A stretch of 64,000 nucleotides of DNA, from assembly GCA_965209055.1 (NCBI GenBank), contig OZ242374.1, forward strand, positions 5,920,001 through 5,984,000, read 5' to 3'. The DNA comes from Acidobacteriota bacterium (GTDB taxonomy: Bacteria > Acidobacteriota > UBA6911 > RPQK01 > JAJDTT01). Both the position numbers and the translations under genes were made by a program. Of this stretch, positions 4,015 through 42,680 are shown in pieces (the stretch's first letter is position 1; every line of letters begins with the position of its first letter). The notes under the pieces are model-generated. The model searched no databases. It was given only the letters and a program-made list of their open reading frames with translations, and was not told the origin of the DNA.

Positions 4015-4854
4015 TCAGTTCAGCAGCGTCGCCTTCTTGATGTAGTCCAGCTTGGGGAAATCCCGCTTGAGATAACCGTTCCCTTCGGCTCGAATCCGCC
4101 CCTGACTCGGCCCTCTGCCCGAAAGAGCACCCTCGCCGTACCCCTTGTAGACGGAGTCCACCACCTCCATCCCTTCGATGACTCGGCCGAAGGGAGAAAA
4201 GCCGTAGCTGTCCAGGCTCCCGTTGTCCTTGTAGTTGATGAAGAACTGCACCGACCGGGAGTGGGGCATGTTGGTCTTGGCGAAGGAAATGTAGCCCCGC
4301 TGGTTCGACTTCACCACCGGGTCGTCCTGGATGTTGGCGGCGCTCCACTTCTGCCCGATGGCCGGATCGCCATGCATGCCGAACTGGGCCATGAACCCCT
4401 CGATCACCCGGAAGAAGGCGATGTTCCGGAAGTAGCCGATCTTCACCAGGTTGTAGAAACGGTCCGCGCCTCGAGGCGACCATTCCCGGGTCACCTCGAC
4501 CACGAAGTCCCCCTTGGTGGTCTCGAATCTGGCCTTGAAACTGGCGGGAGCCTTCTCGCTGGCCAGCGAGGGATTCCTCAGAGCGGGATTGGGCCCTTTC
4601 ATGGGCCGTGGCGGTTTGTCCATCTTGACGGGCTCCGGTTTCGGTTCATCGGGTTTCTTGGCCGGTTCCGGCGGGATCACATCCGCAACGTCGCCGGCCG
4701 CTTCCTCGGCGGTCGCCTTGTCTCCTGCGTCGGCCACGGCCTCTTCAGCCGCCGGCGGCTCCGCCAAATCCGGTTCATCAGTGACAGGCGCGCTACAGGA
4801 GAGCGAAAGCAACAACAAGAAAAACGCACAACAGCTCCATCGCCTCTCATGCAT
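4015..4854 (-). CDS. Cyclophilin-type peptidyl-prolyl cis-trans isomerase, lipoprotein
   Basis: LSLSC lipobox, Pro/Ala/Glu-rich linker, FFRVIEGFMAQFG and QFFINYKDN motifs. Confidence 0.92.
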   Translation of the reverse strand: MHERRWSCCAFFLLLLSLSCSAPVTDEPDLAEPPAAEEAVADAGDKATAEEAAGDVADVIPPEPAKKPDEPKPEPVKMDKPPRPMKGPNPALRNPSLASEKAPASFKARFETTKGDFVVEVTREWSPRGADRFYNLVKIGYFRNIAFFRVIEGFMAQFGMHGDPAIGQKWSAANIQDDPVVKSNQRGYISFAKTNMPHSRSVQFFINYKDNGSLDSYGFSPFGRVIEGMEVVDSVYKGYGEGALSGRGPSQGRIRAEGNGYLKRDFPKLDYIKKATLLN

Positions 4855-5044
4855 GTCTCTTTATCTCCTTCATGGTTTCTCGTGTCCGGTCCTCTCTCCA
4901 GTCCGCCGATTATTGCCCGGCAGGGGGTTGGGTTCAAGAGACAGGGTCTCGAAGCCGAACTCGTATTGGCAATGCGCGATTGCCGATCCGCGTTTCTTGA
5001 CACCCTTCCCGGTCGTCCATAGGTTGGTGCAGGGAGGTCGACAT

Positions 5045-6700
5045 ATGCAGCAGAGGCGCCTTGGATGGTCGAACAGTGAGATTGGCGGGTCCCCGGCCGG
5101 CGCCGAAACCGGCTGGCGGTTCGCCGCGGGTGTCCTGGCGGCATGCCTCGTCTTGGCGGGGACGGCGGCGGCGGGATCTGCGGGCCTGCTTCATATCGGC
5201 GGAAACAAACAGCTCTTCATCGACGACCACGTCATCGAGAGTCTCAGCCACGTCAAGCAGATCCTCAACCCGGCCGTGAAACATCCGGCAAACCCCCTTT
5301 TGAAGCAGGACCGGCCCTGGGAGGGTCATTACATCGGGCTCCAACGGATCATCTACGACCCGGATCAGGGACTGTACCGGATGTGGTACCGGGTCACCGG
5401 AGCGTTCGAGTCCCGGAAAGGGGGCGCCGATCGGCTCAGGCCTTACCGCTGGGACTGGAACGTGGTCGACGGAAAAGCAGTTCGCAGCAAGGTGGAGGAG
5501 GTTTACGGTTACAGGCAATACGCCGGCGGCGAGGATTGGCTTCTCTGCTACGCCACCTCCCGGGACGGCATCCAATGGGAGAAACCCAATCTGGGCCAGG
5601 TGGAGTTCGAGGGCTCCCGCGACAACAACATCCTGCCGCACGGCACGCTGGTCCCCCTATTTCGGGACGAGCACGAAACCGATCCCGCCAAGCGCTACAA
5701 AGCCATGAAGTCCGAGGGCACGACTCCCACCGCCTGGAAGCGGGGAATCAAACCGGGGATGCGGCAAAGCCTCTACTACTCGCCCGACGGCGTCGAGTGG
5801 ACGCCCTACGAGAACAACCCGGTGATCGACACCGCTCCCAAAATAGGCCGCTGGGGACCCACCCAACACATGGGCTGGGATCCCATCCGGCAGGTCTACG
5901 CCGTGTTCATGGAGCAGTGCCTGCACCGGGGCTGCCCCCAGGGGCAACGGATCATCGGCCGGGCCGAGAGTCCGGACATGACCCGATGGACCCCGGACCA
6001 GAACGTCCTGATCCAGGATGAACTGGACTTTCCCGACACGGAGTTCTACTCGATGCCGGTCATGGCCTACGAGGGGATCTACATCGGGCTACCCTGGATC
6101 TTCCGCACCACCAATACGCTGCATTACCCCCAACTGGCCTTCAGCCGGGACGGAATCCGCTTCGAGCGGCGGTACCGCCAGCCCTTCCTGCAGGTGGGCG
6201 ACAAGGGGGACTTCGACGAGAGCACCATCTACGTGCACCAGCCCATGGTCCGTGACGGCGAGATCCGCATCTACTATTACGGGGGCAACTGGAGGGGCTC
6301 AGAGTCGCTCCACGCCCAGGGAGACCGGGCCATGTTCGCGGTGGCGCTGGCCACGGTTCGCGAGGACGGGTTCGTCTCGGTGGACGCGGGCAAGATCCAC
6401 CCGGGCTCCCTCAAGACCCGCTTCCTCAGCTTCGAGGGCCGCCGTCTGGTGGTGAACCTGGAGGCCGCCAAGCACAACCACGGCGCCGGACAACCCGAGG
6501 TCCGGGTCGAGATCATCGGAAACGACTACCATCCGATCCCGGGCTATACCCTGGACGAGTCCGACCCGGCGCGGGTGACGGGAAAGCACGTGATGAGCTG
6601 GCGGGGAAACACGGAACTCGGCGCCTTGGCCGGAACCCCGGTACAGCTTCGCTTCCTGATACGAAACGCCAAGCTCTTTTCGTTCCAGTTCCGGCCGTAG
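5045..6700 (+). CDS. Secreted beta-propeller glycoside-hydrolase-like protein (Asp-box repeats)
   Basis: ATG 5045 after GGAGG; signal peptide; QLFIDD; repeated SxDGxxW; C-terminal DGFVS...LRF..AKLFSFQF. Confidence 0.7.
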   Translation: MQQRRLGWSNSEIGGSPAGAETGWRFAAGVLAACLVLAGTAAAGSAGLLHIGGNKQLFIDDHVIESLSHVKQILNPAVKHPANPLLKQDRPWEGHYIGLQRIIYDPDQGLYRMWYRVTGAFESRKGGADRLRPYRWDWNVVDGKAVRSKVEEVYGYRQYAGGEDWLLCYATSRDGIQWEKPNLGQVEFEGSRDNNILPHGTLVPLFRDEHETDPAKRYKAMKSEGTTPTAWKRGIKPGMRQSLYYSPDGVEWTPYENNPVIDTAPKIGRWGPTQHMGWDPIRQVYAVFMEQCLHRGCPQGQRIIGRAESPDMTRWTPDQNVLIQDELDFPDTEFYSMPVMAYEGIYIGLPWIFRTTNTLHYPQLAFSRDGIRFERRYRQPFLQVGDKGDFDESTIYVHQPMVRDGEIRIYYYGGNWRGSESLHAQGDRAMFAVALATVREDGFVSVDAGKIHPGSLKTRFLSFEGRRLVVNLEAAKHNHGAGQPEVRVEIIGNDYHPIPGYTLDESDPARVTGKHVMSWRGNTELGALAGTPVQLRFLIRNAKLFSFQFRP

Positions 6701-6736: not shown

Positions 6737-8230
6737 CTACCGGAACCGGAACGAATAGAGATCGGCGTCCTGCAGGACGAAGCGCAGGCGGACCGTCTTC
6801 CCGGCGACCCGGCGGAGCGGTTTCTCACGAACCTTGCCTCCGTAAATCCATCCTGCCTTCCCCTCCAGCTCGTCCCCCCAGATGGGGACCGATTCGGTCA
6901 GCGAGAGTTCGGGCACCGGGTTGCCGTTGACGTCCTGGATCTCCACCCGAATGGAGCCGGCCGCCGAAGTGGAGTAGTTCAGGACCAGGTTTTCTCCGCT
7001 GAAACGGAACGGTTTCGTGATCAGCTCGCCTCCCGGATAGCCCGCGCTGGCGGAGGCGAAGCCGTCGGTCCGGACGACGACGCGCTGCAGGTGGGCCGAA
7101 GGATAGGTGTAGTGCTGCACCAGGTAGAGGGAAAGCTCCCCCGGCGCCGTGGGGACGATGCCCCGGGCGACCAGACCGTTCCGGTGGATCCAGTTACGCC
7201 GTTCCCTTCCGGGACGGATGAAGGCTTCCATGAAGCGGTGCCAATGGACGCCGTCGCGGCTGCTCATGAGGACACCGTCGGAGAGGCCGGGCCATTCCGC
7301 GGCAGGGGCGGGATCCAGATGTTGGGGAATGCGGTAGGTGACGAAGCGCTTGGGAAAGGCCAGGTAGATATGGGGCGCCCGAAAATAGGGCACGGTGGCA
7401 TTGGTGTAGAGATGTTCGGTGGGAGCGTCGCCGTAATCCACCCACCGGCCCTCGGACCATTCCACGAAGTCCTTCGAGGTCGCGTACTTCAGGGTCCGCA
7501 CCCCGTGGAGGAAATCCCGGTAGAGCGCCACGTAGACCCCCCGCTCGCCATCCCAGAAAGCCACGTTGTGGGAGTCGAAGGCGCCGTCGGTGAGGACCGG
7601 AATCTCACGCATCCAGCTCCAGCGGATGCCGTCGGGAGAGGCCAAAGCCACGAGACCCCGATGGTTCCCGGGCTTGGCGAAGGCCACCGCCTTGTAGCGG
7701 GCCTCCGCCGGAGCCGCCGGATTGTCGTCCCGGAAGGGATTCAGCTTGGCGGCGCCCCGGACCTCCAGGATATTGTTGTCCCGGGAGCCCTCGAACTCCA
7801 CCTGCCCCAATGAGGGACGGGTCCAGTGGATGCCGTCGCGGCTCTCCGCGTAGCAGACGACCTTCTCGTGGGCGGCGACCCAGGTCTCCCCCGGCTCCAG
7901 CTCTTCCCGGTGGATGTAGTCGACCGCGGAGCTGCCCCGGTAGTACATGCGGTAGATTTCGCCGTCCTTGAAGACCGCCACGTGGAAGGGAATATTCCCT
8001 TCCCAGGGCTGGTCGAAGACGAAGACCTTCTCGGCGCGCCGGGGCTGCTGGACCTCCAACTCCACCCCATCCATGGACTCGATGAGAGTGTCGTCGACGA
8101 AAAGCTCCAGGCGGTTTCCCAGGTCGGGAGCCGGGTCGGAATCGGCAGCCTTCTTTCCGTGGCCCGACGCCCCGAAGCCGGACCCGCCCGCCAGAACCAG
8201 CAATACGAATATCCGCAAAATCGATTTCAT
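6737..8230 (-). CDS. Secreted beta-propeller glycoside-hydrolase-like protein, paralogue of 5045..6700
   Basis: Signal peptide; ELFVDD; SRDGIHW/SPDGIRW/SRDGVHW; DADLYSFRF end. Confidence 0.7.
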   Translation of the reverse strand: MKSILRIFVLLVLAGGSGFGASGHGKKAADSDPAPDLGNRLELFVDDTLIESMDGVELEVQQPRRAEKVFVFDQPWEGNIPFHVAVFKDGEIYRMYYRGSSAVDYIHREELEPGETWVAAHEKVVCYAESRDGIHWTRPSLGQVEFEGSRDNNILEVRGAAKLNPFRDDNPAAPAEARYKAVAFAKPGNHRGLVALASPDGIRWSWMREIPVLTDGAFDSHNVAFWDGERGVYVALYRDFLHGVRTLKYATSKDFVEWSEGRWVDYGDAPTEHLYTNATVPYFRAPHIYLAFPKRFVTYRIPQHLDPAPAAEWPGLSDGVLMSSRDGVHWHRFMEAFIRPGRERRNWIHRNGLVARGIVPTAPGELSLYLVQHYTYPSAHLQRVVVRTDGFASASAGYPGGELITKPFRFSGENLVLNYSTSAAGSIRVEIQDVNGNPVPELSLTESVPIWGDELEGKAGWIYGGKVREKPLRRVAGKTVRLRFVLQDADLYSFRFR

Positions 8231-8258: not shown

Positions 8259-9164
8259 CTACATGCCGAGCCGCCGGCTCGCCGGATCGATGATCCAGAG
8301 CCAATCGTCCGCGAGAAACTCCAGCCTCTGGGCCATCAGGGCGATGCGCCCCATCACCGTGTAGCCGAAACCGGCCCCGAAGGTGATCATGAGGAACCAG
8401 ATTCCCAGGCGCGAGACGCCGCCCACCATCCCCTTGTGTTCGATGGAAAAGAAGAAATAGGTCAGGCAGGACAAGACTCCCACCACAATGGTCAGGTTCT
8501 GAATGGAGGCCGAAAAATCGAATCCCTGGGACCCGACCACCACCAGGGGAAGTATCGTGCTCTGGATCTGCCGGAGAAAGTCGCTCTGGAGGTAGCCCAG
8601 GAGCCGGATCCCGGCGGTGGCGCCGATGAAGAAGGCCAGGGCCCAGCGGGAGATCCAGCCCCCAACCGGCGAGAGCCGCATCAACATCAGGACGCTCAGC
8701 AGCAGCGGAAACAGGTAGATGAGTTCCTGCTCCTGGGATTCGGGGAGGCCCGGAAGCAGCGAACTCCGGATCAGATCGGGAGCCAGCTTGCTGAAGAGGT
8801 TCTGAACCATTCCGGTCCAGAACCCGACGACCATCCAGTAGGCCGCCGAGACCCCGACGAAGACGGCTTCCGCCAGTTTGTAAAGGGGGTTGTCGCCGTA
8901 AAGAAAGGAGAGGATGCAGAGCGTGAAGAGGGCGGCCAGCCAGTTCCCCGCGGTGCGGGACCAACTCACGCGGACCCCCTCTTCTCCCTGCCGCTTGGGA
9001 TCCACTCCCACGGCCCGGCTCCACGATTCCTGGCCCGGTTCCTGGACTTCCACGGGCTGGTCCTGAACGTAGACCATCCCCATGCCTCCCGTGGCCAGCC
9101 TCACCAGCAGGTAGATCCCGGCCACCACCATCAATGCCATCCAAACCCATCCGGACCGGCTCAT
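8259..9164 (-). CDS. Conserved multi-pass membrane protein (glmL-like operon)
   Basis: About 8 hydrophobic segments; SFLYGDNPLYKLAE and FLMITFGAGFGYTVMGRI; ATGA-coupled to upstream gene. Confidence 0.75.
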   Translation of the reverse strand: MSRSGWVWMALMVVAGIYLLVRLATGGMGMVYVQDQPVEVQEPGQESWSRAVGVDPKRQGEEGVRVSWSRTAGNWLAALFTLCILSFLYGDNPLYKLAEAVFVGVSAAYWMVVGFWTGMVQNLFSKLAPDLIRSSLLPGLPESQEQELIYLFPLLLSVLMLMRLSPVGGWISRWALAFFIGATAGIRLLGYLQSDFLRQIQSTILPLVVVGSQGFDFSASIQNLTIVVGVLSCLTYFFFSIEHKGMVGGVSRLGIWFLMITFGAGFGYTVMGRIALMAQRLEFLADDWLWIIDPASRRLGM

Positions 9165-10021
9165 GACGCCACCCCCTTTCGCCGCTCCCAGAAGTAGATG
9201 ACGTTGCCCAAAACGATGAGCAGGAGCACCAGCATGTGGGCCAGGAGCTGCGGGCCCATGCGCCGCAGTCCCTCCTGTGCCGTGTCATTGTCCGCCAAGG
9301 CGGGATAGAGGTCGATGACCGCCTGCTCGTACTCGGCCGCCGCCTTGATGGCCGCCAGCAGGCCGGTCAGTTGTGACGGAATATAGGGATACAGCGACGG
9401 GGCCGTGACTCCAGTGGTCCCCCCGACGATCTTCAGGTCGTAGGGGGTCGCGGCATAGAGCACCCACTCCTTGGTGCCCGGATAGCCCGCGCTCACGTTG
9501 ACGATGAGGTCCATCTGGCGGATGTTCTTCAGATTCCGGGTGAGCGGCAGCTCGTCCAGGCTGGTCCCGTCCACGTCGTTGGCGAAGAGCTTCTTCAGAT
9601 CCCCCACCACCACCTTGATGACCCCCTCGCTGCCGGGACGGAACCCCATGTTCACGTAATCGCGCCCGTATTCGTAGCCGGGAAACTCCCGATTCAGGAG
9701 GTCGATGCTCTCCTGGATCAACGGTCCGCCGGTGGCCCAGAGCGTCAGGAAGTAGAGCTTGTGCTTCTTGTAGGCGCAGTGGCGGACGAAAGCGGCGGCC
9801 ATGGGGCTCAGCTCGCCCCGGCTGGCGGGGTCGAAGTCCCAGGCCATGAGGACGTCCGAGCCTTCGGGGAGCTCTTCGATGGCCGAACGGACGTTCAGGA
9901 CCATGGGCGACGGACTCTCGGGAAACCGGATCCCGAACAGAAGCGGAATCAGGATGGACAACAGCATCAGCAGGAAGATCCAGCGCCGGTCCAGGTTGCG
10001 CAAGAATTCGGTGACCTTCAT
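9161..10021 (-). CDS. Membrane-anchored protein with soluble alpha/beta domain (glmL-like operon)
   Basis: N- and C-terminal TM helices; YGRDYVNMGFRPG and GLLAAIKAAAEYE. Confidence 0.75.
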   Translation of the reverse strand: MKVTEFLRNLDRRWIFLLMLLSILIPLLFGIRFPESPSPMVLNVRSAIEELPEGSDVLMAWDFDPASRGELSPMAAAFVRHCAYKKHKLYFLTLWATGGPLIQESIDLLNREFPGYEYGRDYVNMGFRPGSEGVIKVVVGDLKKLFANDVDGTSLDELPLTRNLKNIRQMDLIVNVSAGYPGTKEWVLYAATPYDLKIVGGTTGVTAPSLYPYIPSQLTGLLAAIKAAAEYEQAVIDLYPALADNDTAQEGLRRMGPQLLAHMLVLLLIVLGNVIYFWERRKGVAS

Positions 10022-10024
10022 GGG

Positions 10025-10711
10025 CTATTCCTCCGTTCCCAGATAGGAGCGATCGACGCCCAGCAGAATCTTCAGGGAAAGGGAGACCACGCCCAAGCCG
10101 ATCCCGATGGTGATGGCCCTGTTCCCGGCCAGGTTGAAGATGTTCATGATGGTCTCGGAGAGGTTGGCGAATTGGAGAGGCTCGGGCAGCCATCCCGTCA
10201 ACGCCGTGCCGGCGTACGTCCTTCCCACCAGAACGATGAAGGCGGTGGAGAGCAGGATGATGGCCTCGGTGTTCTTGGCCCGGAAGGCCCGGAACGCGGC
10301 CGAGGCGATGAAGCAGGCCAGCAGGGCGAACATGGTGGCCCCCAGGGGATAGAAGGCATACTGGTAGATGAACCAGAAAGAGCTGCCCTCTTGAACGTAG
10401 TCCCCCGACCAGGCGAACTGGGGAAACTGGGCGCTGGGGTGGACGCCCATCTTGGCCATGCCCACCACCAGGGTCAGGAAGAAGGCGATGACGGTGACGG
10501 CTGCGTAGCCCCAGCCGGCCCGCCGGTCCGAGATCTTCTGCAGGTTGAGCTTCACCAGGTTGGCGCCTCCCAGAATGAAGGCGATTGCGGCCAGGATGTC
10601 GAACCAGATCATGGCCTCTTCGCCCCACGATTGGGTGTAGGGAACGAAGTGGGCGCCGATGAGGACGAATCCCGTCACCGCGGCAATGAGCAGGGGGAGA
10701 GTTCTCTTCAT
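10025..10711 (-). CDS. Multi-pass membrane protein (glmL-like operon)
   Basis: About 6 TM helices; PLGATMFALLACFIASAAFRAFR. Confidence 0.75.
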   Translation of the reverse strand: MKRTLPLLIAAVTGFVLIGAHFVPYTQSWGEEAMIWFDILAAIAFILGGANLVKLNLQKISDRRAGWGYAAVTVIAFFLTLVVGMAKMGVHPSAQFPQFAWSGDYVQEGSSFWFIYQYAFYPLGATMFALLACFIASAAFRAFRAKNTEAIILLSTAFIVLVGRTYAGTALTGWLPEPLQFANLSETIMNIFNLAGNRAITIGIGLGVVSLSLKILLGVDRSYLGTEE

Positions 10712-10723
10712 AGCGTGCTTTCC

Positions 10724-11944
10724 TTACCAGCCCTGGTTGCCCAGGACGTTGTCGGTCAAATACGTCAGCACCTGGCCCAGAACCGGCGCATCGGTCAGGA
10801 CCGCGACGGTGGAGAGCAGGCATCCGACCACCACCAGCGTTCCACCCAGGACCTTTCCCACGTCCTGGCCCTTGAGGCTGCCCAGTTGGTGGCTCTCCCC
10901 GGAGAGGTAGGCCGAGGCGGCGAACAGCTCCTCCCCGATGAGGGTGTAGTCGCACGCCGCCACGAAGAAGGGGAGTTGCGAGGGCATGGCGGTCCCGGCC
11001 ACCTGGATGGCGCCGACGGCGTTTCCGGTCTCGGCCAGAATCAGCGACTCGGCAAAGAAAGCGCCCATGTAGAAGCAGGCCGCCGGCCGCTCCCGGAGCA
11101 TCTTCCCGGTGACGCCCGCCACATAGCCGAACTGCTCGTCCGTCAGGTAGTAGACCGAGTCTTCGTTGAAGGCATCGGGACGGCCCGCCCCCAGGTAGGC
11201 CGCCTCCACCGTCTCCCGGCAGGCGGTCATGACCAGGGAACGGGAAGTGGGCACGTCCAGCCGGGCGTCGAACTCGGCCGTCAGTCCCGCCACCCGCGAC
11301 AGGACCGTCACGCCGGCGAGGGTCTGCATGTCGTTGATGTCCAGGATTCCCGGGACGTAAAGGCAGGGACGGCCCATTTCGGTAGCCCGCCCCACTGCCT
11401 CATCCACCGCTTCCAGCCCGGCGATCCGGCGGACCTTCAATTCCCGTCCGCTCCGGGCCAGTTGGATGTAATAAACGACGCTGCCCCCCACGATCAGCAG
11501 GACCACGCCGAACCAGAATTGGGAAAAGTCGAAGTACTGCATCACCGGCGTCACCGGACTCACGGTGGCGGCGGCGGGCGATCGCGCGCCGGCCGGGCCC
11601 AACGCCACAACCTGGTAGAAGTAGCTGGCTCCCCGCGTGCACCGGTCGTCCTTGAAGGACCGGGTCTGGTAGGTCTCTTCTCCGATCTTGGCGAACGCCT
11701 CCTCGCCCGCTTCGCGCCTCAGGATCTCGTAGCCGACGACCAATCGTTCGGCGGGCCGGGGTTGGTCGTCGGGGGACAGCTCCCACTCGATCCGCACCGC
11801 CTCCCCGGCGTCGTTGGGAAAGTCGGCGGCCCGGACATCACCGGGCGGCCGGGGGGATTGGGCCAGGATCGGGGAGGCCCCGCCCCCAAGGACGAGACCG
11901 GCGGCCAGCACCGACAAGAAAATCGATTTGTCCATCGTAATCAC
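10724..11944 (-). CDS. Fibronectin-III plus DUF6754-like membrane protein (glmL-like operon)
   Basis: Signal peptide, FN3-like W..GYEILR..YFYQVVA, TM helix, then RRIAGLEAVDEAVGRATEMGRP and DYTLIGEELFAASAYL; domain name from recall. Confidence 0.7.
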   Translation of the reverse strand: MITMDKSIFLSVLAAGLVLGGGASPILAQSPRPPGDVRAADFPNDAGEAVRIEWELSPDDQPRPAERLVVGYEILRREAGEEAFAKIGEETYQTRSFKDDRCTRGASYFYQVVALGPAGARSPAAATVSPVTPVMQYFDFSQFWFGVVLLIVGGSVVYYIQLARSGRELKVRRIAGLEAVDEAVGRATEMGRPCLYVPGILDINDMQTLAGVTVLSRVAGLTAEFDARLDVPTSRSLVMTACRETVEAAYLGAGRPDAFNEDSVYYLTDEQFGYVAGVTGKMLRERPAACFYMGAFFAESLILAETGNAVGAIQVAGTAMPSQLPFFVAACDYTLIGEELFAASAYLSGESHQLGSLKGQDVGKVLGGTLVVVGCLLSTVAVLTDAPVLGQVLTYLTDNVLGNQGW

Positions 11945-13065
11945 GCCTCAATCAGTTCCACGTTGGCCCGCGGCACCACCAGCCGGCGGCCCGACTCCAA
12001 TCGTACCTCCAGGACCCGCGCCCGTGAACCGGATCCCAGAATCCGGGGTTCTGCCGGGAGCCCGGAAACCACGCCGATCAATCCGAAATACGGGTCCCGG
12101 ATGACCCGGACCGGCGTCCCCAATTCCAGCAGGCCGGCAGGGCGAGCGGCGTCCACTTCACCCGCGGTTCCGTCAGGCGACGGAATCACGATCTCCGGCC
12201 GCTGGACTCCGGCCCGGATCTGAGTGGCGCCGTTGACCGACGCCGGGTCCCCTTCCCGGGAGGCCAGCAACCGGAAGGTCTTGCGGGCCATGGCGATGGT
12301 TCCGAAACCCTCGGTGATGATCAGGGTCGTGGCCACCGGTTCCGATCCGGTGACTGCGACCCCCAGGTCGTAGCCGAGGATCTGCCGCAGGTCCGCATCG
12401 TCCATGCCTCCCGAGACCAGAGCCGAGATTCCGATCCGAAACGCCTTGCGGACGGCGCCTCCCGTCATCCGGCTGCCACCCACGACGACGGCGCCCCGCA
12501 TCCCCTCGTCCAGCCGGCCGGCCGTCAACTCTTCCTTCTCGTCCCGGCAGGCCATTCGCACCGGTCCGAACGCCTCGCCCCCGATCCCGAAGATCCCCTG
12601 GATGAAGGTGGCGTCCGACTCCAGCACGACGCCTTCTCCCGGGATCTCTTCGACCACCTGGCCGGCCAGATAGGCCAGGACCCGGACCGGGATCGGTTCT
12701 CCGCGAATGATGACCTGACCCGTGACCTGGGAAATGGACTCGATGGTCCCCGGGACCCTGGCCCTGCACTCCGACTTGAACATCCCGAAAATGCCCTTGG
12801 TCCGGGCCAGCGCCTCGCCGGTTTCCACTCGCATACCAGGCTCTTTGAGCATGCATTCGGGGACGTCCGCGGGAGGCAGCGACAGGAGGTTGGCCACGTT
12901 GACCGGGGTGATGTTACCCGGCATGAAGGTCTGGGCGACCACGTCCCGGGAACCCACCCGCTGTCCGGTGCGAACCAGAACCTCGCCCTTGATGGGCAGG
13001 ATCCGACGGCACCGGTATCGGGTGCGGGGACTGACCTTCAGACCGGGCGTGTAAGCATGGGCCAT
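11941..13065 (-). CDS. Soluble protein with barrel-sandwich-hybrid (biotinyl/lipoyl-like) repeats and C-terminal KOW-like motif
   Basis: GEVLVRTGQRV; GMRVETGEALA...ARVPGTIESIS; LGTPVRVIRDPYFGLIGVV. Confidence 0.65.
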   Translation of the reverse strand: MAHAYTPGLKVSPRTRYRCRRILPIKGEVLVRTGQRVGSRDVVAQTFMPGNITPVNVANLLSLPPADVPECMLKEPGMRVETGEALARTKGIFGMFKSECRARVPGTIESISQVTGQVIIRGEPIPVRVLAYLAGQVVEEIPGEGVVLESDATFIQGIFGIGGEAFGPVRMACRDEKEELTAGRLDEGMRGAVVVGGSRMTGGAVRKAFRIGISALVSGGMDDADLRQILGYDLGVAVTGSEPVATTLIITEGFGTIAMARKTFRLLASREGDPASVNGATQIRAGVQRPEIVIPSPDGTAGEVDAARPAGLLELGTPVRVIRDPYFGLIGVVSGLPAEPRILGSGSRARVLEVRLESGRRLVVPRANVELIEA

Positions 13066-13086
13066 ACTGCGTCGACCTCGCCACTC

Positions 13087-14898
13087 CTATGCCGGGACCG
13101 GGGGGACCAGATCCAGATCCCGGACCCATTGATCCATGGCCTTGCGGCAGGCCTCTCGATCGTCGGGCAGCGACAGAGGGCGGCCTCTGGCGTCCAGCAG
13201 GACTCCCACCGTCCCACCCCTGAGCTCACCCTCCACGGGCCGGCCGGGACCCGCCCCCGCGTCCACCTTCCGCGCCGGCTCCACCACGATTCGGGCGCCG
13301 GCTCCCAGACCCAACGGCAGCCTCCTGACTTCGCCGAAGGAGAGGACGCCCTCCTCCTCCAGACCGCCGGAGATGGCGTATCGGAACGCCGGGCTGCCCC
13401 AGGCGCCGGTTCCCCTGGGGGACACGCAGGTTCCCAGGGAGATGAGGCAATCCCTCTGGAACACCTGGAGCGCCGCCTCCGGATGGACCTGGGCCAGCAC
13501 GCCCAGGTGGGGCATCATGAAGATGCTGTCCTTGGCCAGCCAGGTGATCCCCTCGGGCTGAAAGGCGTCCACCAGGAGCGCCGCCGTCTGCTGCATCAGC
13601 GGAGCGTGGGAGAGGACTCCGCCCGAACCCACCAACAGATCCAGCTTCATATTGTCCACCAGGGTCTGGCCGCTGGCCTCCTGGCTGAAGGTGTCTCCCA
13701 CGGTCCTCTGCTGCTGCACCCCCTTGAGCGTGGTGGCGAACTGCTTGTGCTGGTCGTAGGCCAGGCGCAACGCCTCGCGGGCCACGGCCTGCTCGAAGAA
13801 GAGGGATTCCCGGGTCTGGGGAATCGTGGTGGGCCGGATCATCTTGTTCTTGACGTGGTTTCGCAGTTCCCCCTCCTCCATTTCCAAGTGGACCCAACGA
13901 AGGATGGAAGGCAGCGTCGCCTCGGCGCACACGTTGGAGATGGAGTAGCTCATTCCCAGGTTGGCGCTCACGGTCCGGTTGAAGGTGCCGTCGAAGACGC
14001 TGAAGACATCGGTGGTCGCTCCGCCGATGTCCACGCCCACCACGTTGATCCGCTGCTGTTCGGCAATCCTCTGGAGGATGTTTCCCACCGCGCCCGGCGT
14101 GGGCATGATGGGGGCGTCGGTCCAACGGATCAGGCGGTCGTACCCGGGGGCATGGGCCATGACGTGTTCCAGAAACAGGTCATGGATCCTGTCCCGGGCC
14201 GGTCCCAGATTCTCCCGTTCCAGGACCGGACGCAGGTTGGGAACGATGGAGAGCTGGACCGATTCGTCGAAGGTCTGCTCCACCAGCGGCGCCGCGTCCT
14301 GGTTCCCCGCGAAGATCACCGGCATCCGGTACTCGGCGCCGAAACGGGGCTGGGGCCGGGCCGGCGCGATGAGCTCGGCCATCTGCACGACGTGGCGGGT
14401 GGTTCCGCCGTCGGTTCCGCCCGAGATCAGCACCATGTCGGGCCGCAGCTCCCGGATCCGGTGGATCTGCTCGTGGGGAAGGCGGCGGTCATTGGAGGCC
14501 AGAACGTCCATGACGATGGCGCCGGCCCCCAGGGCCGCCCGCTTGGCGCTGGCGGCGGTCATCTCCCGGACCACGCCGGCCACCATCATCTGGAGGCCGC
14601 CGCCGGCGCTGGAAGTGGAGATGTAGAGGTCGCATCCTTCGCCGCCGGTCGCCGGCCTCAGGATCCGGCCCGCATCGTCGATGAGACGGCGCCCGGCCAT
14701 TTCGGCCACTTCGGCGACGGCGTTGACGACCCCCAGGGTGACGTCGGCCGCCGGTTCCTCCACGGTCGTGGGAGCCTCGCCCCGGTGGGTCTGCCGGTAC
14801 TCTCCGTCGACCTTCTGGATGAGGATGGCTTTGGTGGTGGTGCTCCCGCAGTCGGTGGCCAGGATCACGTTGACGGAGTCGGGATCGATCTGCTTCAT
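13087..14898 (-). CDS. GlmL/MutL-family (glutamate mutase L-like) actin-fold ATPase
   Basis: Phosphate-1 ATDCGSTTTKA, TSSAGGGLQM, GGTDGG, phosphate-2 VDIGGATTDV, GSGGVLSHAP; ATG 14898 overlaps upstream stop. Confidence 0.85.
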   Translation of the reverse strand: MKQIDPDSVNVILATDCGSTTTKAILIQKVDGEYRQTHRGEAPTTVEEPAADVTLGVVNAVAEVAEMAGRRLIDDAGRILRPATGGEGCDLYISTSSAGGGLQMMVAGVVREMTAASAKRAALGAGAIVMDVLASNDRRLPHEQIHRIRELRPDMVLISGGTDGGTTRHVVQMAELIAPARPQPRFGAEYRMPVIFAGNQDAAPLVEQTFDESVQLSIVPNLRPVLERENLGPARDRIHDLFLEHVMAHAPGYDRLIRWTDAPIMPTPGAVGNILQRIAEQQRINVVGVDIGGATTDVFSVFDGTFNRTVSANLGMSYSISNVCAEATLPSILRWVHLEMEEGELRNHVKNKMIRPTTIPQTRESLFFEQAVAREALRLAYDQHKQFATTLKGVQQQRTVGDTFSQEASGQTLVDNMKLDLLVGSGGVLSHAPLMQQTAALLVDAFQPEGITWLAKDSIFMMPHLGVLAQVHPEAALQVFQRDCLISLGTCVSPRGTGAWGSPAFRYAISGGLEEEGVLSFGEVRRLPLGLGAGARIVVEPARKVDAGAGPGRPVEGELRGGTVGVLLDARGRPLSLPDDREACRKAMDQWVRDLDLVPPVPA

Positions 14899-15236
14899 TT
14901 GCCAGCCGAGTCGAGTTCTTCGATCCGGCGACAAAGATAGTCCACCGAGCCCCGATGCTCAAGAAAGGCGGCCAGGTGCCGGTGCCCGTGGGACTGGGTG
15001 AGCCCCGAGAGCACGGGCGAAAGGAAATGCAAGAGCTGGGAACCCAGGAAGTTGAGGGGCCGGGACATTTCAAGAAACATGAGAGCCGGCGTCGCCAGCC
15101 GGCGCCGCACCAGCTCCCGGCAGATCCCGTCGGCCACCTGGCGCTGCTCGTCCGTGGGTTGGAATTCGGTTGGCGTATCTACGGCAAAGGCGTGCCGCCA
15201 ACCCTTTCGCGGCCTTCCCTCTTCTTTTTTCGCCAA
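14895..15236 (-). CDS. Small conserved hypothetical protein, first gene of glmL-like operon
   Basis: Likely TTG start at 15236 after GGGAG; LEMSRPLNFLGSQ..F..P helical motif; ATGA-coupled to ATPase. Confidence 0.65.
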   Translation of the reverse strand: MAKKEEGRPRKGWRHAFAVDTPTEFQPTDEQRQVADGICRELVRRRLATPALMFLEMSRPLNFLGSQLLHFLSPVLSGLTQSHGHRHLAAFLEHRGSVDYLCRRIEELDSAGK

Positions 15237-15246
15237 TCTGAGACTC

Positions 15247-15273
15247 CCAGGAATTATAACCCGAATTTCCTGG
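15247..15273 (-). promoter_or_regulatory. TATAAT -10 box of glmL-like operon within a CCAGGAA-N13-TTCCTGG inverted repeat
   Basis: Minus-strand TATAAT at 15253-15258; perfect 7-bp inverted repeat at 15247-15253 / 15267-15273. Confidence 0.5.
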
Positions 15274-15396
15274 AACTTGAGAATCGCATCCAGGCTCACC
15301 ATGCTTTACACTGCGAGAGCAGCTGCTACCCTACACCGGTTGATCAGAGGGTGAGGACGCCGGGAGCAGGCTCCCATACTCGCAAGGAGAAACGAT

Positions 15397-16341
15397 ATGA
15401 AACTAGCCACGTGCAGCCTGGAGGACCGGTCCTTCGTCGCCGTAGCCACGGACGACGGACGGGTCGTGGATCTCGCTGCCGCCGACGCCGAGCTGGCCCG
15501 CAAGGAGGAGCGGCCTCCCCACGCGTTCTTCCGCGACATGATCGACTTTCTGGAACATGGGACCCAGGCCCGGGAGGCTGCCGACAAGGCCGTCCGGGAA
15601 GGCCTGGACGGATCCGCTGCGCACCCCCTTTCCGGCGTGCGCCTGCGGGCTCCGGTGCCGGTTCCCCGGAAGCTCTTCTGCCTCGCCGGCAACTTCCAGG
15701 ACCACATCGAGGAAGGCGGCGGGAAGATGGACTCCCAGGACAAGGAGACCCCGCGCTTCTTCATGAAGCCCGCCAGCACCTGCGTGATCGGTCCTGAGGA
15801 CAGCATCCGGATTCCACCCGTGGCCCGGGCCATGGACTGGGAGGGAGAGCTGGCCGTGGTTCTGGGCCGGCGGTGCAAAAGGGTCTCCCGGGACCAGGCT
15901 CTCGACTACGTCGCCGGATACACCATCATGAATGACGTGTCGGAGCGGAAGCTCAAGATCTGGCCCCGAAGTGAGGACCGCCCCCAGGACAGGTGGTTCG
16001 ATTGGCTCAACGGGAAGTGGCTGGATTCCGCGGCACCCATGGGACCCTGGATCGTCACCACCGACGAGATCCGGGACCCCCAGACCCTGATGATCAGCAC
16101 CTACGTCAACGGAGACAGAAAGCAGCACAACAGCACCAGCCAGATGCTGATTTCCGTGGCCGCGCTCATCGAGTACATCTCGGCCATCGTCATGCTGGAG
16201 CCGGGAGACGTGATCAGCACCGGCACCGTCTCCGGCGTCGGAAACGTCACCGGGGAGTACCTCAAACCGGGAGACCGGGTGGAGGTGGACATCTCGAGAA
16301 TCGGCCTGTTGTCAAACCCGGTCGCCGCCAGTTCCAGCTGA
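15397..16341 (+). CDS. Fumarylacetoacetate hydrolase family protein
   Basis: MDWEGELAVV, GYTIMNDVSER, GK, PGDVISTGT. Confidence 0.92.
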   Translation: MKLATCSLEDRSFVAVATDDGRVVDLAAADAELARKEERPPHAFFRDMIDFLEHGTQAREAADKAVREGLDGSAAHPLSGVRLRAPVPVPRKLFCLAGNFQDHIEEGGGKMDSQDKETPRFFMKPASTCVIGPEDSIRIPPVARAMDWEGELAVVLGRRCKRVSRDQALDYVAGYTIMNDVSERKLKIWPRSEDRPQDRWFDWLNGKWLDSAAPMGPWIVTTDEIRDPQTLMISTYVNGDRKQHNSTSQMLISVAALIEYISAIVMLEPGDVISTGTVSGVGNVTGEYLKPGDRVEVDISRIGLLSNPVAASSS

Positions 16342-37171: not shown

Positions 37172-40100
37172 TTATCGAACGGTAGGCGCCGCGGCCGGGG
37201 CCGGGTGGGGCAGCCGGTCACCGGAACCGCCGACCCGGACTCCGACGACCAGGCCGGGTCCGTACGATGACTGGCTGTAGGAGCAGAACCAGGTCAGCAG
37301 GCGGTCGGGCCGCAGCCGCACCGCATAGCCGGCGCCGGCGTCCACGCCCCAGTCGGCCGGTTCGGCGCCGCCCCGGTAGCCGCGGTAGACCTGCTCCTGC
37401 CAGAGTCTGCCGCCGCCGTTGGCCTGATCTCCCCAGCGCGGCGACAGCGACAGCGACAGGCCTTGGTGCCGGCTCCCCACGCTGAGCGTCACCCCGACTC
37501 CTCGCTCGCGATATCCCGCGGCCGAATGCAGCACCAGCATCCGCCCCTGGGCGTCGACCCGCACCCGGCCCCCAGCCGCCCGCAGGCCGCCGGCCAACTC
37601 CAGGCCGGTCCCCGTCTGTCCCGCCCCGCCGTCGCGCCGCACGTGCGCCTCGACGAACGGCGCCAGCGCCAGTCCGTTTTTCATCCGCACCGGACGCGAC
37701 ACGTCCGTGCCGAAGCGCGCCTGGCTGACCCCCACCCGGTGCGCGTCGATGGTCTCCTCCCCCGCCCCGGTGGCCAGCCGCGCCCACGCCGCGTCCCCCC
37801 GCAGACCGATCTCGGCCCGGCCGCCCGCCGCGCCGTAGCGCCGCCGCACCTCCACCAGGCCCAGGCCCAGGCCCAGACCGCTGGTTCCCAGGCGACCGCT
37901 CCGCCGCACGTTCTCCACTTCGCCCCAGCCTCCGCCGCCCAGCGCCGAGAACGAGGTCCTCCCATCCGACCAGTGCAGGTACGGGTGCACCGCCGTCAGC
38001 GTTGCCGCCAGCGAGCCGCTCGACCCGCCCACGCGCCAGTCGCCCGATCCCTGACTGCGCGCCAGCGCCACTCCCGCCAACCAGCTCTCCGACAGCCACG
38101 TGTCCAGTCCCAAGTACCCGGTCCGCAGGTCGCCACCGTAGCCCACCGCCGCCGATCGCGCCCCTTGAAACGTCTGGAGGTCCCCCTGGCCCCACACCTG
38201 CCAGCGCCTCCCGGGACGCGTCGGTTCGTCCGCCGCCTCGCCTCCGCCCCAAGCCACCACGAACTCCGTGCCGCTCAGCCACCGGTCCGGCCCGAGTCCG
38301 TCTCCTCCGTACCCGACAGGGCTTCCCAGCCTCCCGGCGCAGTCCCGCTGCGCACCGGCGCCCGGCCCCATCGGGCACTCAGGATCTCCTCCCGGCGCCA
38401 CACCCATCGCGCCGCCGCCGAACGACCCCAACCCGGGCCGCCTCGCCGGGTTCGAATACCGGCCGGCGAACGGCCGGCCGCCCGACATGAACCGCTCCGC
38501 CTCCGCCCGGCTCAGCGGCACCCTCCGTCCCATCACCGTCAGCTCGGTCCGCCGCCCCGGGCCCGCCGCCGCCCGACGCCCCAGCGTCATCCGTGCGCTC
38601 GCCAGATGCGACCGCGCCAGGGCCGCCAGCGTATCCTCCACCACCGCGCGCACGAGCCGGTCGCTCACCCCCACCCCGAACGTCTGCGTCGCCCTCATCC
38701 CATCCGGGTCCTCCCCCGTCACCCGGACCGTCGCCCTCCCGTATTCCACCGGCGTCAGAGTCAGCGTCTCTCCGCTCACCCCCACCGTCACCACCAGCGC
38801 ATCCGACGACGACGCGCGGAAGATCAGCGGGTCCCCGTCGGCGTCGTGGAAGTACCGGCCCAACTCCACCGTCACCTCCGAACCGCCCTCGTCCAGATCC
38901 TGATCCGGAATCGTCCCGACGGTCACCGGCGCATCGTTCGCCGACACCACGACCACCTCCACGGCCGCTTCCGCCGTCCCGCCGGCTCCGTCGGAGACCA
39001 CATAGGTGAACCGGTCCGTTCCGTGGTAGTTCGCCTCCGGCGTATAGGCCACGCCCCCGGAGACGGACCTCGCCGTCCCGTGCTCCGGGGCCGAGACGCT
39101 CTCGACGTGCAGGGCGTCGCCGTCCGGATCCGTGTCATTGGCCAGCACGTCCACCGTGACTCGCTGGTCCTCCTCCGTTCGCGCCTCGTCGTCCTTTGCC
39201 TCCGGCGCTTCATTCAGGTTGGTCACCGTCACCACAATCGGAACTCTCGCCTCCGCCCCGTGGGGGTCGCGGGCCCGGGCCGTCAGCTCGTACCGGTTCG
39301 GCTCCGACTCGAAGTCCTCCCCCGGACCGGCATAGGTGACGGCGCCGTTTTGCGCCCCGATGGCGAAACGCTCGCGGTCGCCGGACAGCAACGCGTAGGT
39401 CACCTCGTCGCCGTCCGGATCCGACGCCGTCACGAGACCGAGGGCCACGGGTCGTTGGCGGCCATCCAGGTTCTCGCGCAGTTCGAAGGCATAGGCCGGC
39501 TCCCCGAACACCGGCGGCTCGTTGACGACTTCGACGACGACCTCGGCCGACGCCGTACCGCCCCGGCCGTCGGAGACCTCGATTCGGATCGTGACCGGCC
39601 CGGTGGCCTCCGGTGCCCGCCAGCGCGCCGTGGCGGCGTCCGCGGCTCCCATGAAACCGCCCTGCGGCGCGCTCCACCTGTAGGTCAACGGGTCGTCTTC
39701 CGGGTCTGACGCCGTGGCCGTCAGACGGGCTTCGCCGCCCGGAGCCACCACGCACGGGTCGCATGATGCCGTTACCGTGGGCGGGCGGTTCTCCCCGGGC
39801 GGAGGGTTGGACCGGACGACCCTGACGGTCACGACGGCCGACGCCGTACCGCCCCGGCCGTCGGAGACCACCACTCGGACCGTGACCGTCCCGGTGGCGT
39901 CCGGCGCCCGCCAGAACGCCGTCGCGGCGCTGGCGGCTCCGCTGAAGCCGCCCCGCGGCGCGCTCCACGTGTAAGTCAGCGGGTCGCCGTCCGGGTCCGA
40001 CGCCGACGCCGTCAGACGCACCTCCCCGCCCGGGGCCACCCTGCAGGGGTTGCACGACGCCGTCACCGTGGGCGGGCGGTTCCCCCGCGGCGGCCTGGTG

Positions 40101-42397: not shown

Positions 42398-42531
42398 GAC
42401 TTCCTGCACTCCTTCTTTTTTCAGCCGACGATCTATGGCAGAAAGCCTTTCTGTGACCGCCCCAACTCTGCCCTGTCCAGATCGTCCAATCGGCGAACGG
42501 CGCCGCTTGGAACGGCCTCCCCTCTGGGCAA

Positions 42532-42680
42532 GGAATGGCGCGTGGAAAGTGAAAACCGAACTGTCTCGCCGCGGGAAGTACGGGCTTCTCGCCCCTCCTT
42601 CCAACTCGACAACTAATGACGTGTGGAAAGCGAAAACCGGACAGTTTCGCCGCGGAAAGTGTGGGCTATTCGCCCCTGGC
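42532..42680 (-). promoter_or_regulatory. Tandem pair of about 65-bp units, each containing the ECF-like promoter motif (42613-42643 intact; 42532-42562 degenerate), upstream of the adhesin
   Basis: TGTCCGGTTTTCGCTTTCCACACGTCATTAG versus AGTTCGGTTTTCACTTTCCACGCGCCATTCC. Confidence 0.65.

Follow-up and report, generated by a model that had tools for sequence, protein, structure and literature searches.

A conserved seven-gene cassette with a MutL-family ATPase probably encodes a new kind of ATP-driven membrane machine

Introduction

What does an ATPase of the MutL/GlmL family do when it is encoded together with a row of membrane proteins? This question is raised by a cassette of seven genes (g1 to g7) in the genome of an Acidobacteriota bacterium, which consists of one contig (OZ242374.1) of 6.08 Mb and is 98.4% complete. 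The stretch that was analysed comprises 64,000 nt (positions 5,920,001 to 5,984,000 of the forward strand) and will be called the window. The 'reactivase' role given to relatives of GlmL is a presumption from gene context. The original prediction, which was made from the sequence of the window, took the cassette for an ATP-driven membrane machine in which the ATPase energises or gates a membrane complex.

The cassette probably encodes a new kind of ATP-driven membrane machine. With a probability of roughly one half, it is a two-part inner-membrane machine, composed of a motor (g1 to g3) and a membrane module (g4 to g7), which would most likely serve phospholipid or envelope biogenesis.

The seven open reading frames (ORFs) are co-oriented on the minus strand from 8259 to 15302, with no room between them in the ORF listing:

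g1, 14895-15302, minus strand: ORF of 135 amino acids (aa) as listed, a small soluble protein
g2, 13087-14898, minus strand: ORF of 603 aa from an ATG overlapping the g1 stop, an ASKHA ATPase of the MutL/GlmL Pfam family
g3, 11941-13065, minus strand: ORF of 374 aa, a putative cytoplasmic coupling protein with a barrel-sandwich hybrid at the N-terminus, a swivelling beta/beta/alpha part in the middle and a KOW/SH3-like part at the C-terminus
g4, 10724-11944, minus strand: ORF of 406 aa, with signal peptide, FN3, transmembrane helix (TM), DUF6754 and TM
g5, 10025-10711, minus strand: ORF of 228 aa, a polytopic membrane protein with about six hydrophobic segments
g6, 9161-10021, minus strand: ORF of 286 aa, a bitopic membrane protein with an alpha/beta-looking domain between two TMs
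g7, 8259-9164, minus strand: ORF of 301 aa, with an N-terminal TM, a variable region and a conserved six-segment membrane core

Four-base overlaps join g1 to g2 (ATGA, 14895-14898), g3 to g4 (GTGA, 11941-11944) and g6 to g7 (ATGA, 9161-9164), and the other three junctions are gaps of 21 (g2/g3), 12 (g4/g5) and 3 nt (g5/g6). The ORF listing bore out the coordinates and junctions that had been given before. The start of g1 is uncertain and may lie at 15302 or, as first proposed, at 15236; the conserved core begins at about residue 35 of the long ORF.

Conservation and distribution of the cassette

Stretches encoding relatives of g4 were collected by a scan with one genome per species, and the gene content of the best 80 of these 192 stretches was determined by tblastn with the seven window proteins. 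Seventy-two of the 80 loci lie outside the genus of the window (the non-genus loci), and kinship among the genomes inflates all neighbourhood counts. Of the 80 loci, 48 carried all seven genes with order and strand unchanged. Record titles assign the 80 loci to Acidobacteriota (the window's genus), Planctomycetota, Gemmatimonadota, Neomarinimicrobiota/Fidelibacterota, Verrucomicrobia and Eisenbacteria, and all of them stem from uncultured bacteria (79 metagenome-assembled genomes and one record with a Candidatus strain label). Among the other 32 loci, 26 were cut by a contig end, one (L071) carried an insertion of 6.8 kb in the cassette, two had g4 only (L065, L084), and three lacked g1 and g2 (L032), g1 to g3 (L093) or g6 and g7 (L076). 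The recurrence of this gene order across phyla is not due to chance, and it shows that the cassette is conserved across several phyla.

Outside the genus, identity to the window proteins was highest for g2 (68-80%, with two short end fragments of 42-48% in L075 and L094 left out), followed by g3 (52-71%), g4 (45-69%), g5 (46-69%), g6 (44-71%), g7 (38-62%) and g1 (38-63%). An identity of 68-80% across phyla is above what is usual for housekeeping actin-fold proteins.

The distribution of DUF6754, the domain of g4, differed strongly between phyla. It was present in 81 of 121 genomes of Marinimicrobia/Fidelibacterota (the phylum of G042), some of them only 0.9-1.1 Mb in size, in 80 of 301 Planctomycetota and in 7 of 201 Acidobacteriota (3 of 136 genera); all eight other genomes of the window's genus that were searched carried it. 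It was absent from all 14 control genomes, and 72,556 plasmid records contained no copy. The cassette therefore belongs almost to the core genome of one phylum, is common in a second, and has been acquired only rarely in the phylum of the window.

Many carriers come from sea water, to judge by record titles. The stretch of the window itself was found in runs of ten studies, with seven runs labelled sponge metagenome. In three sponge metatranscriptome runs (two studies), RNA-library contigs 90-97% identical to the window contained pieces of all seven genes and bridged five of the six junctions (g1/g2, g3/g4, g4/g5, g5/g6 and g6/g7, not g2/g3). They are compatible with transcription of relatives' operons and give a faint hint of it, since such libraries can hold DNA and contigs are not single transcripts. 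A cassette kept so tightly in abundant ocean and sponge bacteria most likely has a basic function at the membrane.

A MutL-family ATPase without a mutase

The product of g2 matched the Pfam family MutL (PF13941) with an E-value of 2.1e-127 and 426.1 bits (cut-off 27) over residues 12-484 of 603. The match spanned the whole model (1-450 of 450), and a C-terminal extension of about 120 aa was left beyond the MutL domain. The phosphate-1, phosphate-2 and adenosine motifs were invariant in an alignment of 20 orthologues, and with the Pfam match this confirmed the ASKHA ATPase with both phosphate loops intact that had been read from the window. The protein shares 71-77% identity with 19 orthologues of other lineages and is encoded by the sole MutL gene of its genome. 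Sequence and profile searches of the PDB revealed no relatives, no actin-like polymer family of Pfam was matched at E<=0.01, and no PilM, FtsA or GspL signature was found.

Public records name such proteins 'glutamate mutase L', and g2 stays below the cut-offs of the curated models for these functions, with 233.1 bits for GlmL (NF040745, cut-off 475), 211.5 bits for Or-4 (NF040744, cut-off 600) and 163.4 bits for TIGR01319 (cut-off 204.05). A domain scan of 45 window ORFs, Pfam included, revealed neither a mutase nor a B12-binding domain, and no cobalamin riboswitch in the window reached the Rfam gathering score. Both scans agree with the original prediction, which had seen none of the three. 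Methylaspartate mutase E (PF06368) was also absent from the own genome (0/1) and from five other carriers of four phyla (0/5). Four B12-binding domains are encoded elsewhere in the genome, about 1.1-2.3 Mb from the cassette (counted the shorter way, if the contig is circular). The cassette is not a B12-mutase reactivase, and the 'glutamate mutase L' labels mislead metabolic reconstructions.

A different partner of the MutL domain was seen in three proteins of about 1330 aa (P0272-P0274), one of them named as from Bacillota, in which a MutL domain about 50% identical to g2 is joined to a Peptidase_M1 domain.

The other cytoplasmic proteins

The proteins g1, g3, g5, g6 and g7 had no match in Pfam or NCBIfam. 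The core of g1 comprises about 100 aa with nine invariant columns in 20 orthologues, including the motifs H-A-F-A and R-P-L-N. An eighth gene, g0, may stand directly upstream of g1; its product combines a bacterial PH domain (PF10756, E about 1e-5) with two TM helices. It was co-oriented with g1 and ended at it or within a few bases of it in 27 of the 72 non-genus loci, and it also precedes g1 in two distant loci. The window lacks g0, and a search with one query protein did not find it elsewhere in the genome.

For g3, the AlphaFold model built with 22 orthologues reached a predicted local distance difference test (pLDDT) of 83.9 and a predicted template modelling score (pTM) of 0.70. A fold search independent of Foldseek divided it into three parts with matches of middling Z (7-9.5), one of which resembles the swivel domain of diol dehydratase reactivase. 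Foldseek against the PDB gave weak domain matches only, and sequence and profile searches of the PDB gave nothing below E 0.18. The barrel-sandwich/KOW protein of the original prediction was thus recovered in the model and its fold matches, the latter of modest Z (7-8).

Long invariant motifs run through the 22 sequences of g3, none of which includes an invariant histidine. Because no histidine is conserved, a phospho-His relay is not conserved either, and g3 was ruled out as a phospho-His carrier. A role as lipoyl or biotinyl carrier was considered because of LplA-like ligase genes and a near-invariant hairpin lysine. A lipoate/biotin ligase gene (LplA-B_cat) directly follows g7 in L167 (3117-4031), and other members of its cluster occur in L142, L145 and L153. 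The lysine (Lys90) was seen in all but one of 22 sequences of the separate form (21 of 22; Pro in L074) and in three of four fused forms (Arg in L044); being near-invariant but not invariant, it led to the rejection of this role.

The membrane proteins

A Kyte-Doolittle scan of the seven proteins revealed hydrophobic segments in g4 to g7 and none in g1 to g3, as had been proposed. The scan gave g4 two segments and a signal-like one, g5 about six, g6 two (residues 10-36 and 254-279), and g7 a single one and a further six or so. The positive-inside rule would place the FN3 domain of g4 and the domain of about 215 aa in g6 on the periplasmic side, and DUF6754 on the cytoplasmic side.

The protein g4, earlier called 'DUF6754-like', proved to be a full member of that family (PF20539, E 5.3e-120, 399.8 bits, gathering score 27), a stronger assignment than the first one. 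It contains an FN3 fold, the FN3 part of its model being searchable. Among orthologues the sequence hardly changes in the DUF6754 part and is variable in the FN3 part, and the periplasmic domains of relatives vary too, with FN3 as well as EF-hand and TIG inserts. The AlphaFold2 model of g4 had a pLDDT of 67.7 and a pTM of 0.40. In L047, L066, L076, L077, L079, L081 and L092, 0.8-1.4 kb separate g4 from g5; a long N-terminal extension of g5 or a small extra gene may fill this space.

Over 21 orthologues, mean column identity was 58% for g5, which carries an invariant F-R-A-F-R-A-K-N motif, and 59% for g6. The profile of g6 matched at least 3013 clusters at 90% identity. The 120 best matches listed were nameless or called 'hypothetical' or 'uncharacterized' membrane protein and had no Pfam family; no lead came from the PDB, and the named Atlas clusters held no usable match. 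The profile of g7, which is single copy in its own genome, matched 2421 clusters at 50% identity (E<=1e-3), many of them proteins of 213-290 aa with the six-segment core only, and no Pfam family covered the core in 56 proteins scanned of the 150 matches listed. Invariant polar residues of g7 lie in the motifs F-F-F-S-x-E-H-K-G and D-N-P.

No consistent Pfam family appeared for g5, g6 or g7 when 21-22 orthologues of each were scanned at E up to 5. Matches of g5 to DUF7521 (11 of 21) or Acyl_transf_3 (6 of 21) had E-values of 0.007-0.02 and were taken as hydrophobic noise. Paralogy was rejected both for g4 and g6 (hhalign probability 21%, over one TM helix only) and for g5 and g7 (0.7%). ABC_tran, FtsX and MacB domains were absent from all seven proteins, which gave only weak single-member permease matches at E >1.

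Fusions and co-occurrence tie the two parts together

A single ORF of 989-1011 aa covers both g2 and g3 in L044, L049, L052, L060, L070, L071, L073 and L080, and also in three loci cut by contig ends (L050, L067, L088), which makes 11 loci overall. In four of them a residue-by-residue check confirmed the fusion and revealed 15-30 linker residues between the two parts. Proteins more distant in sequence (about 1060 aa, about 40% identity), again named 'glutamate mutase L', likewise combine MutL with a domain labelled Biotin_lipoyl. On the membrane side, P0139 (598 aa) is a fusion of g6 and g7, and P0144 and P0157 (598 and 579 aa) match the g7 profile in their C-terminal half only.

The two sides also stay together when their genes are apart. 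In 301 Planctomycetota genomes, each at least 85% complete, the lists for DUF6754 (80 genomes) and for g3 (78) were compared: both were present in 76, DUF6754 alone in four, g3 alone in two and neither in 219. They occurred together in 76 of the 82 carriers, even when unlinked, as in G342, G198, G076 and G166, where 0.25-2.9 Mb of one contig lie between them. The five genomes with partial cassettes (those of L065, L084, L032, L093 and L076) all had a g7 homologue and a MutL gene elsewhere (5/5 each). From this co-occurrence, the missing parts found elsewhere and the g2-g3 and g6-g7 fusions, it follows that a functional link exists between the ATPase side and the membrane side.

A modular build was revealed by 74 distant metagenome loci, which were fetched with 20 distant proteins from the g7 profile search and annotated by g1 to g7 profiles on six-frame ORFs. 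The g4-g5-g6-g7 unit occurs once in 53 of them, twice in six and three times in tandem in 15, that is, in two or three copies in 21 of 74. The genes g1-g2-g3 directly precede the first unit in L108, L112, L120, L140 and L142, and g3 alone does so in L102; in L157 the motor genes follow the first unit, with g3 directly before the second. In a tree of g6, units from different loci cluster according to their place in the array (first, second or third), which shows that the duplications are ancient. Modules of this kind may also account for several Planctomycetota genomes in which two DUF6754 genes lie about 3.3 kb from each other. A genome labelled Eisenbacteria (G655, which holds L093) carries two MutL genes and, on six separate contigs, six g7 homologues, and thus many membrane units for few motors.

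Lipid genes beside the cassette

A gene for phospholipid or carrier-lipid synthesis lies within about 5 kb of the cassette in 32 of the 72 non-genus loci, mostly in three arrangements. In the first (nine loci of Marinimicrobia/Fidelibacterota and other bacteria), genes for dihydroorotate dehydrogenase, an RlpA-like protein, in some cases a diacylglycerol kinase (DAG-kinase)/YegS-like protein, and cdsA are followed by g0 to g7. In the second (13 Planctomycetota loci), g0 to g7 are followed by plsX, fabH, fabD and an SDR gene. In the third (nine loci of marine Planctomycetaceae), g1 to g7 are followed by an SDR gene, csrA, uppS and cdsA. In one more locus, uppS and cdsA lie upstream on the other strand.

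In three small genomes of the phylum of G042 (G598, G554 and G590, with loci L171, L172 and L173; two of them about 1 Mb), the order is DAG-kinase-like gene, cdsA, g2-g3-g1-g4-g5-g6-g7. Here cdsA abuts g2, g1 has moved between g3 and g4, and g0 is missing. These genomes are AT-rich, and their g4 has no N-terminus of FN3 length.

Because cdsA, the DAG-kinase-like gene, plsX-fabH-fabD and uppS flank the cassette in these three arrangements, membrane phospholipid or envelope biogenesis is the likeliest field of work.

A proposed machine and the evidence for and against it

In the two-part machine, ATP binding and hydrolysis by g2 would drive a swivel movement of g3. Swivelling domains make large rigid-body rotations in phosphoenolpyruvate (PEP)-utilising enzymes and in diol dehydratase reactivase, and by analogy g3 may convert the energy of ATP into such a movement. 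The swivel would act on the cytoplasmic DUF6754 domain of g4, whose helices would relay the movement to the g5/g7 core and to the periplasmic domains. Work would then be done at the periplasmic side, either by translocation of a substrate or mechanically on the envelope.

Several points weigh against this picture. ATP hydrolysis by g2 is assumed from its intact motifs, and the Z range of the g3 matches can reflect common arrangement only. The DUF6754 domain, on which the swivel would act, has no confident fold in the g4 model (pLDDT below 50 for residues 269-340). The conserved charged residues of g5 and g7 lie mostly in loops, and no translocation path is evident. A presumed binding of the motor to the membrane module counts on the same side, and the direction of energy flow and the substrate are presumed as well; a complex prediction of g3 with g1 (residues 30-135) and g4 (residues 130-406) scored 0.00, which weighs neither way. 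As to the lipid link, two of the three arrangements occur in one phylum, where common descent raises the number of cases, the genes cdsA, plsX, fabH, fabD, uppS and DAG kinase are absent from all 74 distant loci, and the window has no lipid genes beside the cassette. Finally, in seven distant loci a g4-g7 unit is preceded by more than 4.5 kb of sequence in which none of g1 to g3 appears, so the module may work without the motor or with a distant one.

In two of these seven (L129, 2165-6236; L147, 3439-6227), a fusion of ABC ATPase and ABC-2 permease together with an uncharacterised 265-aa protein stands directly before g4-g7 on the same strand. It occupies the place of the ASKHA motor, which counts in favour of the two-part machine. 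The genes upstream of the other five are unrelated housekeeping genes. Sorting domains of the type IX secretion system (T9SS) lie near the units of L129 and L147, which suggests a Bacteroidota-like host.

The original prediction had named three outcomes that would tell against it, namely a cassette that is not conserved, strict company of mutase genes, and products without interaction, and none of these emerged. The mutase-less MutL ATPase, the conservation and the tie between motor and membrane are borne out; that the ATPase energises or gates the complex, and the role of the complex, are what we infer. No description of the cassette was found in the papers searched, topics such as GlmL-like and ASKHA-swivel proteins included, and DUF6754 and PF13941 are mentioned in none of them; this agrees with the earlier statement that no functional description was known. 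We know of no system with this make-up.

Alternative explanations

The alternative that survives best, unlikely as it is, would be a membrane-anchored, ATP-dependent enzyme complex that acts on a lipid or a lipid-linked precursor. Catalysis would lie in g7 and/or g5, g2 and g3 would activate the substrate or the enzyme, and neither transport nor mechanical work would be involved. The lipid genes fit such a complex as well, with cdsA directly upstream in nine loci, plsX-fabH-fabD downstream in 13, uppS-cdsA downstream in nine, and the DAG-kinase-cdsA-cassette strings of the small genomes. The invariant polar motifs of g7, the long invariant motifs of g3, which are of the active-site kind, and the distant relation of MutL to ATP-dependent hydantoinase A (a weak match of g2 to PF01968) also point this way. 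However, no component matches an enzyme family of Pfam or NCBIfam, tandem paralogous g4-g7 units behind one motor fit interchangeable modules better, and the 74 distant loci have no lipid genes beside them.

It is quite improbable that the cassette is a primary ion pump or a device of osmo-adaptation, driven by the ASKHA ATPase and spread by gene transfer among marine and host-associated bacteria. All subunits are very highly conserved, as in respiratory and ATP-synthase complexes, and the spread is patchy (7 of 201 Acidobacteriota, 80 of 301 Planctomycetota) with many carriers from sea water. Genes resembling those of Mrp/Nuo-type antiporters do lie upstream of the cassette, but in one planctomycete group only. 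Neither g5 nor g7 has a conserved intramembrane ladder of acidic or basic residues, and variable periplasmic domains such as FN3 and the EF-hand and TIG inserts would be unexpected in a pump.

Slightly less probable still is a cytoskeletal or positioning system attached to the membrane, in which g2 would polymerise and g4 to g7 would anchor the polymer for cell shape, division or envelope growth. The actin-fold signature of g2, conserved beyond what is expected of an accessory enzyme, would suit it, and so would the envelope genes nearby (RlpA-like, uppS). In L119 (10921-12075) and L122 (12271-13497), and also in L108 and L113, ftsZ and ftsA lie just beyond the triple array; these three to four related loci represent one lineage, however, and the two genes are on the opposite strand. 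Within the actin superfamily, the glutamate mutase family is counted among the enzymes and not among the polymers (PMC5597319). The fusion of g2 to a swivel/KOW protein and a stoichiometry of one to three membrane units do not suggest filaments either.

A reactivase or chaperone that acts in trans on a soluble enzyme, B12-dependent or not, with the membrane genes as unrelated neighbours, is close to refuted. It would agree with the Pfam family that g2 shares with GlmL, with the four B12-binding domains encoded elsewhere and with the likeness of g3 to the swivel domain of diol dehydratase reactivase; but methylaspartate mutase E is missing from all six genomes tested, g2 is far below the GlmL and Or-4 equivalog cut-offs, and across phyla the order of the membrane genes beside g2 is preserved, as is their co-occurrence with g3 in genomes where the two are unlinked.

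An anti-phage defence or other conflict system, suggested by the patchy, transfer-prone spread (rare in the window's phylum but present in all eight other genomes searched of its genus, which suggests acquisition by transfer), is the least credible of all, as none of the seven proteins matched PADLOC-DB 2.0 models at E<=0.01, the cassette occurs in two thirds of one phylum (81 of 121 genomes) down to genomes of about 1 Mb, its evolution is extremely slow and it is absent from the plasmid records.

Implications

If the motor works as proposed in the two-part machine, it would represent a new principle of energy coupling and the first mechanistic context of MutL/GlmL outside B12 enzymes. If the lipid link holds, it would bear on how bacteria move and balance phospholipids. 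A broader and more tentative proposal is that the cassette stands for a new class of machines, in which an ASKHA motor with a swivel-domain partner (g0 to g3) takes the place of a P-loop, P-type or rotary ATPase and serves one to three interchangeable g4-g7 modules that move or remodel lipids or envelope precursors. In that case the 'reactivase' label of the whole MutL/GlmL family would describe a special case of a more general device that uses ATP to lever alpha/beta domains open. Of the seven proteins, five have no described family and two carry 'function unknown' or a borrowed label, yet the set is common.

Other features of the window

Upstream of the cassette lies a divergent gene of the FAA-hydrolase family (15397-16341, plus strand). 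The downstream neighbour (6737-8230, minus strand) encodes a secreted protein without a family, which is conserved within the genus only and is thus not part of the cassette. It is convergent with another gene (4514-6700, plus strand; the true start probably lies further in), and the two secreted products look alike, share the stretch L-G-Q-V-E-F-E-G-S-R-D-N-N-I-L and have similar C-termini; neither has a Pfam family. The sole Rfam match in the window is a group II intron domain (RF02001, 35122-35290, minus strand, 80.9 bits, E 1.4e-14). A protein of 1862 aa (37172-42760, minus strand) with Big_9, cadherin-like, PKD and autotransporter beta-domains resembles a large adhesin-like surface protein. 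A scan for regulatory sites was uninformative, with eight terminator-like sites (4.7 expected) and no promoter-like site.

Comparison with known systems

With GlmL/MutL and the relatives from ornithine and lysine fermentation, g2 shares the whole Pfam MutL model and the ASKHA nucleotide motifs. It differs in its scores below the curated cut-offs, its additional C-terminal 120 aa or so, the absence of a mutase from the genome and its constant pairing with g3 and a membrane module.

A second system for comparison is the large subunit of diol dehydratase reactivase, DdrA (PDB 2d0o), together with EutA. In the cassette the swivel domain is encoded by a separate gene or fused to the C-terminus, whereas in DdrA/EutA it is inserted in the ATPase chain, with genes for a small beta subunit and for the target enzyme close by. 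The window ORFs scanned include no dehydratase or lyase.

The swivel domain of PEP-utilising enzymes (PTS enzyme I, PPDK, rifampin phosphotransferase) has a conserved phospho-accepting His that g3 lacks, and the cassette has no ATP-grasp or PEP-binding domain. The barrel-sandwich hybrid recalls the N-terminal part of NqrA and RnfC, which are peripheral subunits of membrane redox pumps; the Fe-S, flavin and NADH-binding parts and the Nqr/Rnf membrane subunits are absent from the cassette.

PilM-PilN-PilO, GspL and FtsA are or contain ASKHA proteins that dock on bitopic membrane proteins, and the energy of such systems comes from separate hexameric ATPases. An actin-fold protein and small membrane proteins with periplasmic domains are shared with the cassette; the partners are unrelated.

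The same logic is followed by the mechanotransmission ABC systems (MacB, LolCDE, FtsEX and the GldAFG type), in which an ATPase on the cytoplasmic side is combined with membrane helices and a large domain in the periplasm. The motor of the cassette has an actin fold instead of a P-loop, and there is no relation in sequence; the layout is alike, and in g6 too a periplasmic domain is held between two helices.

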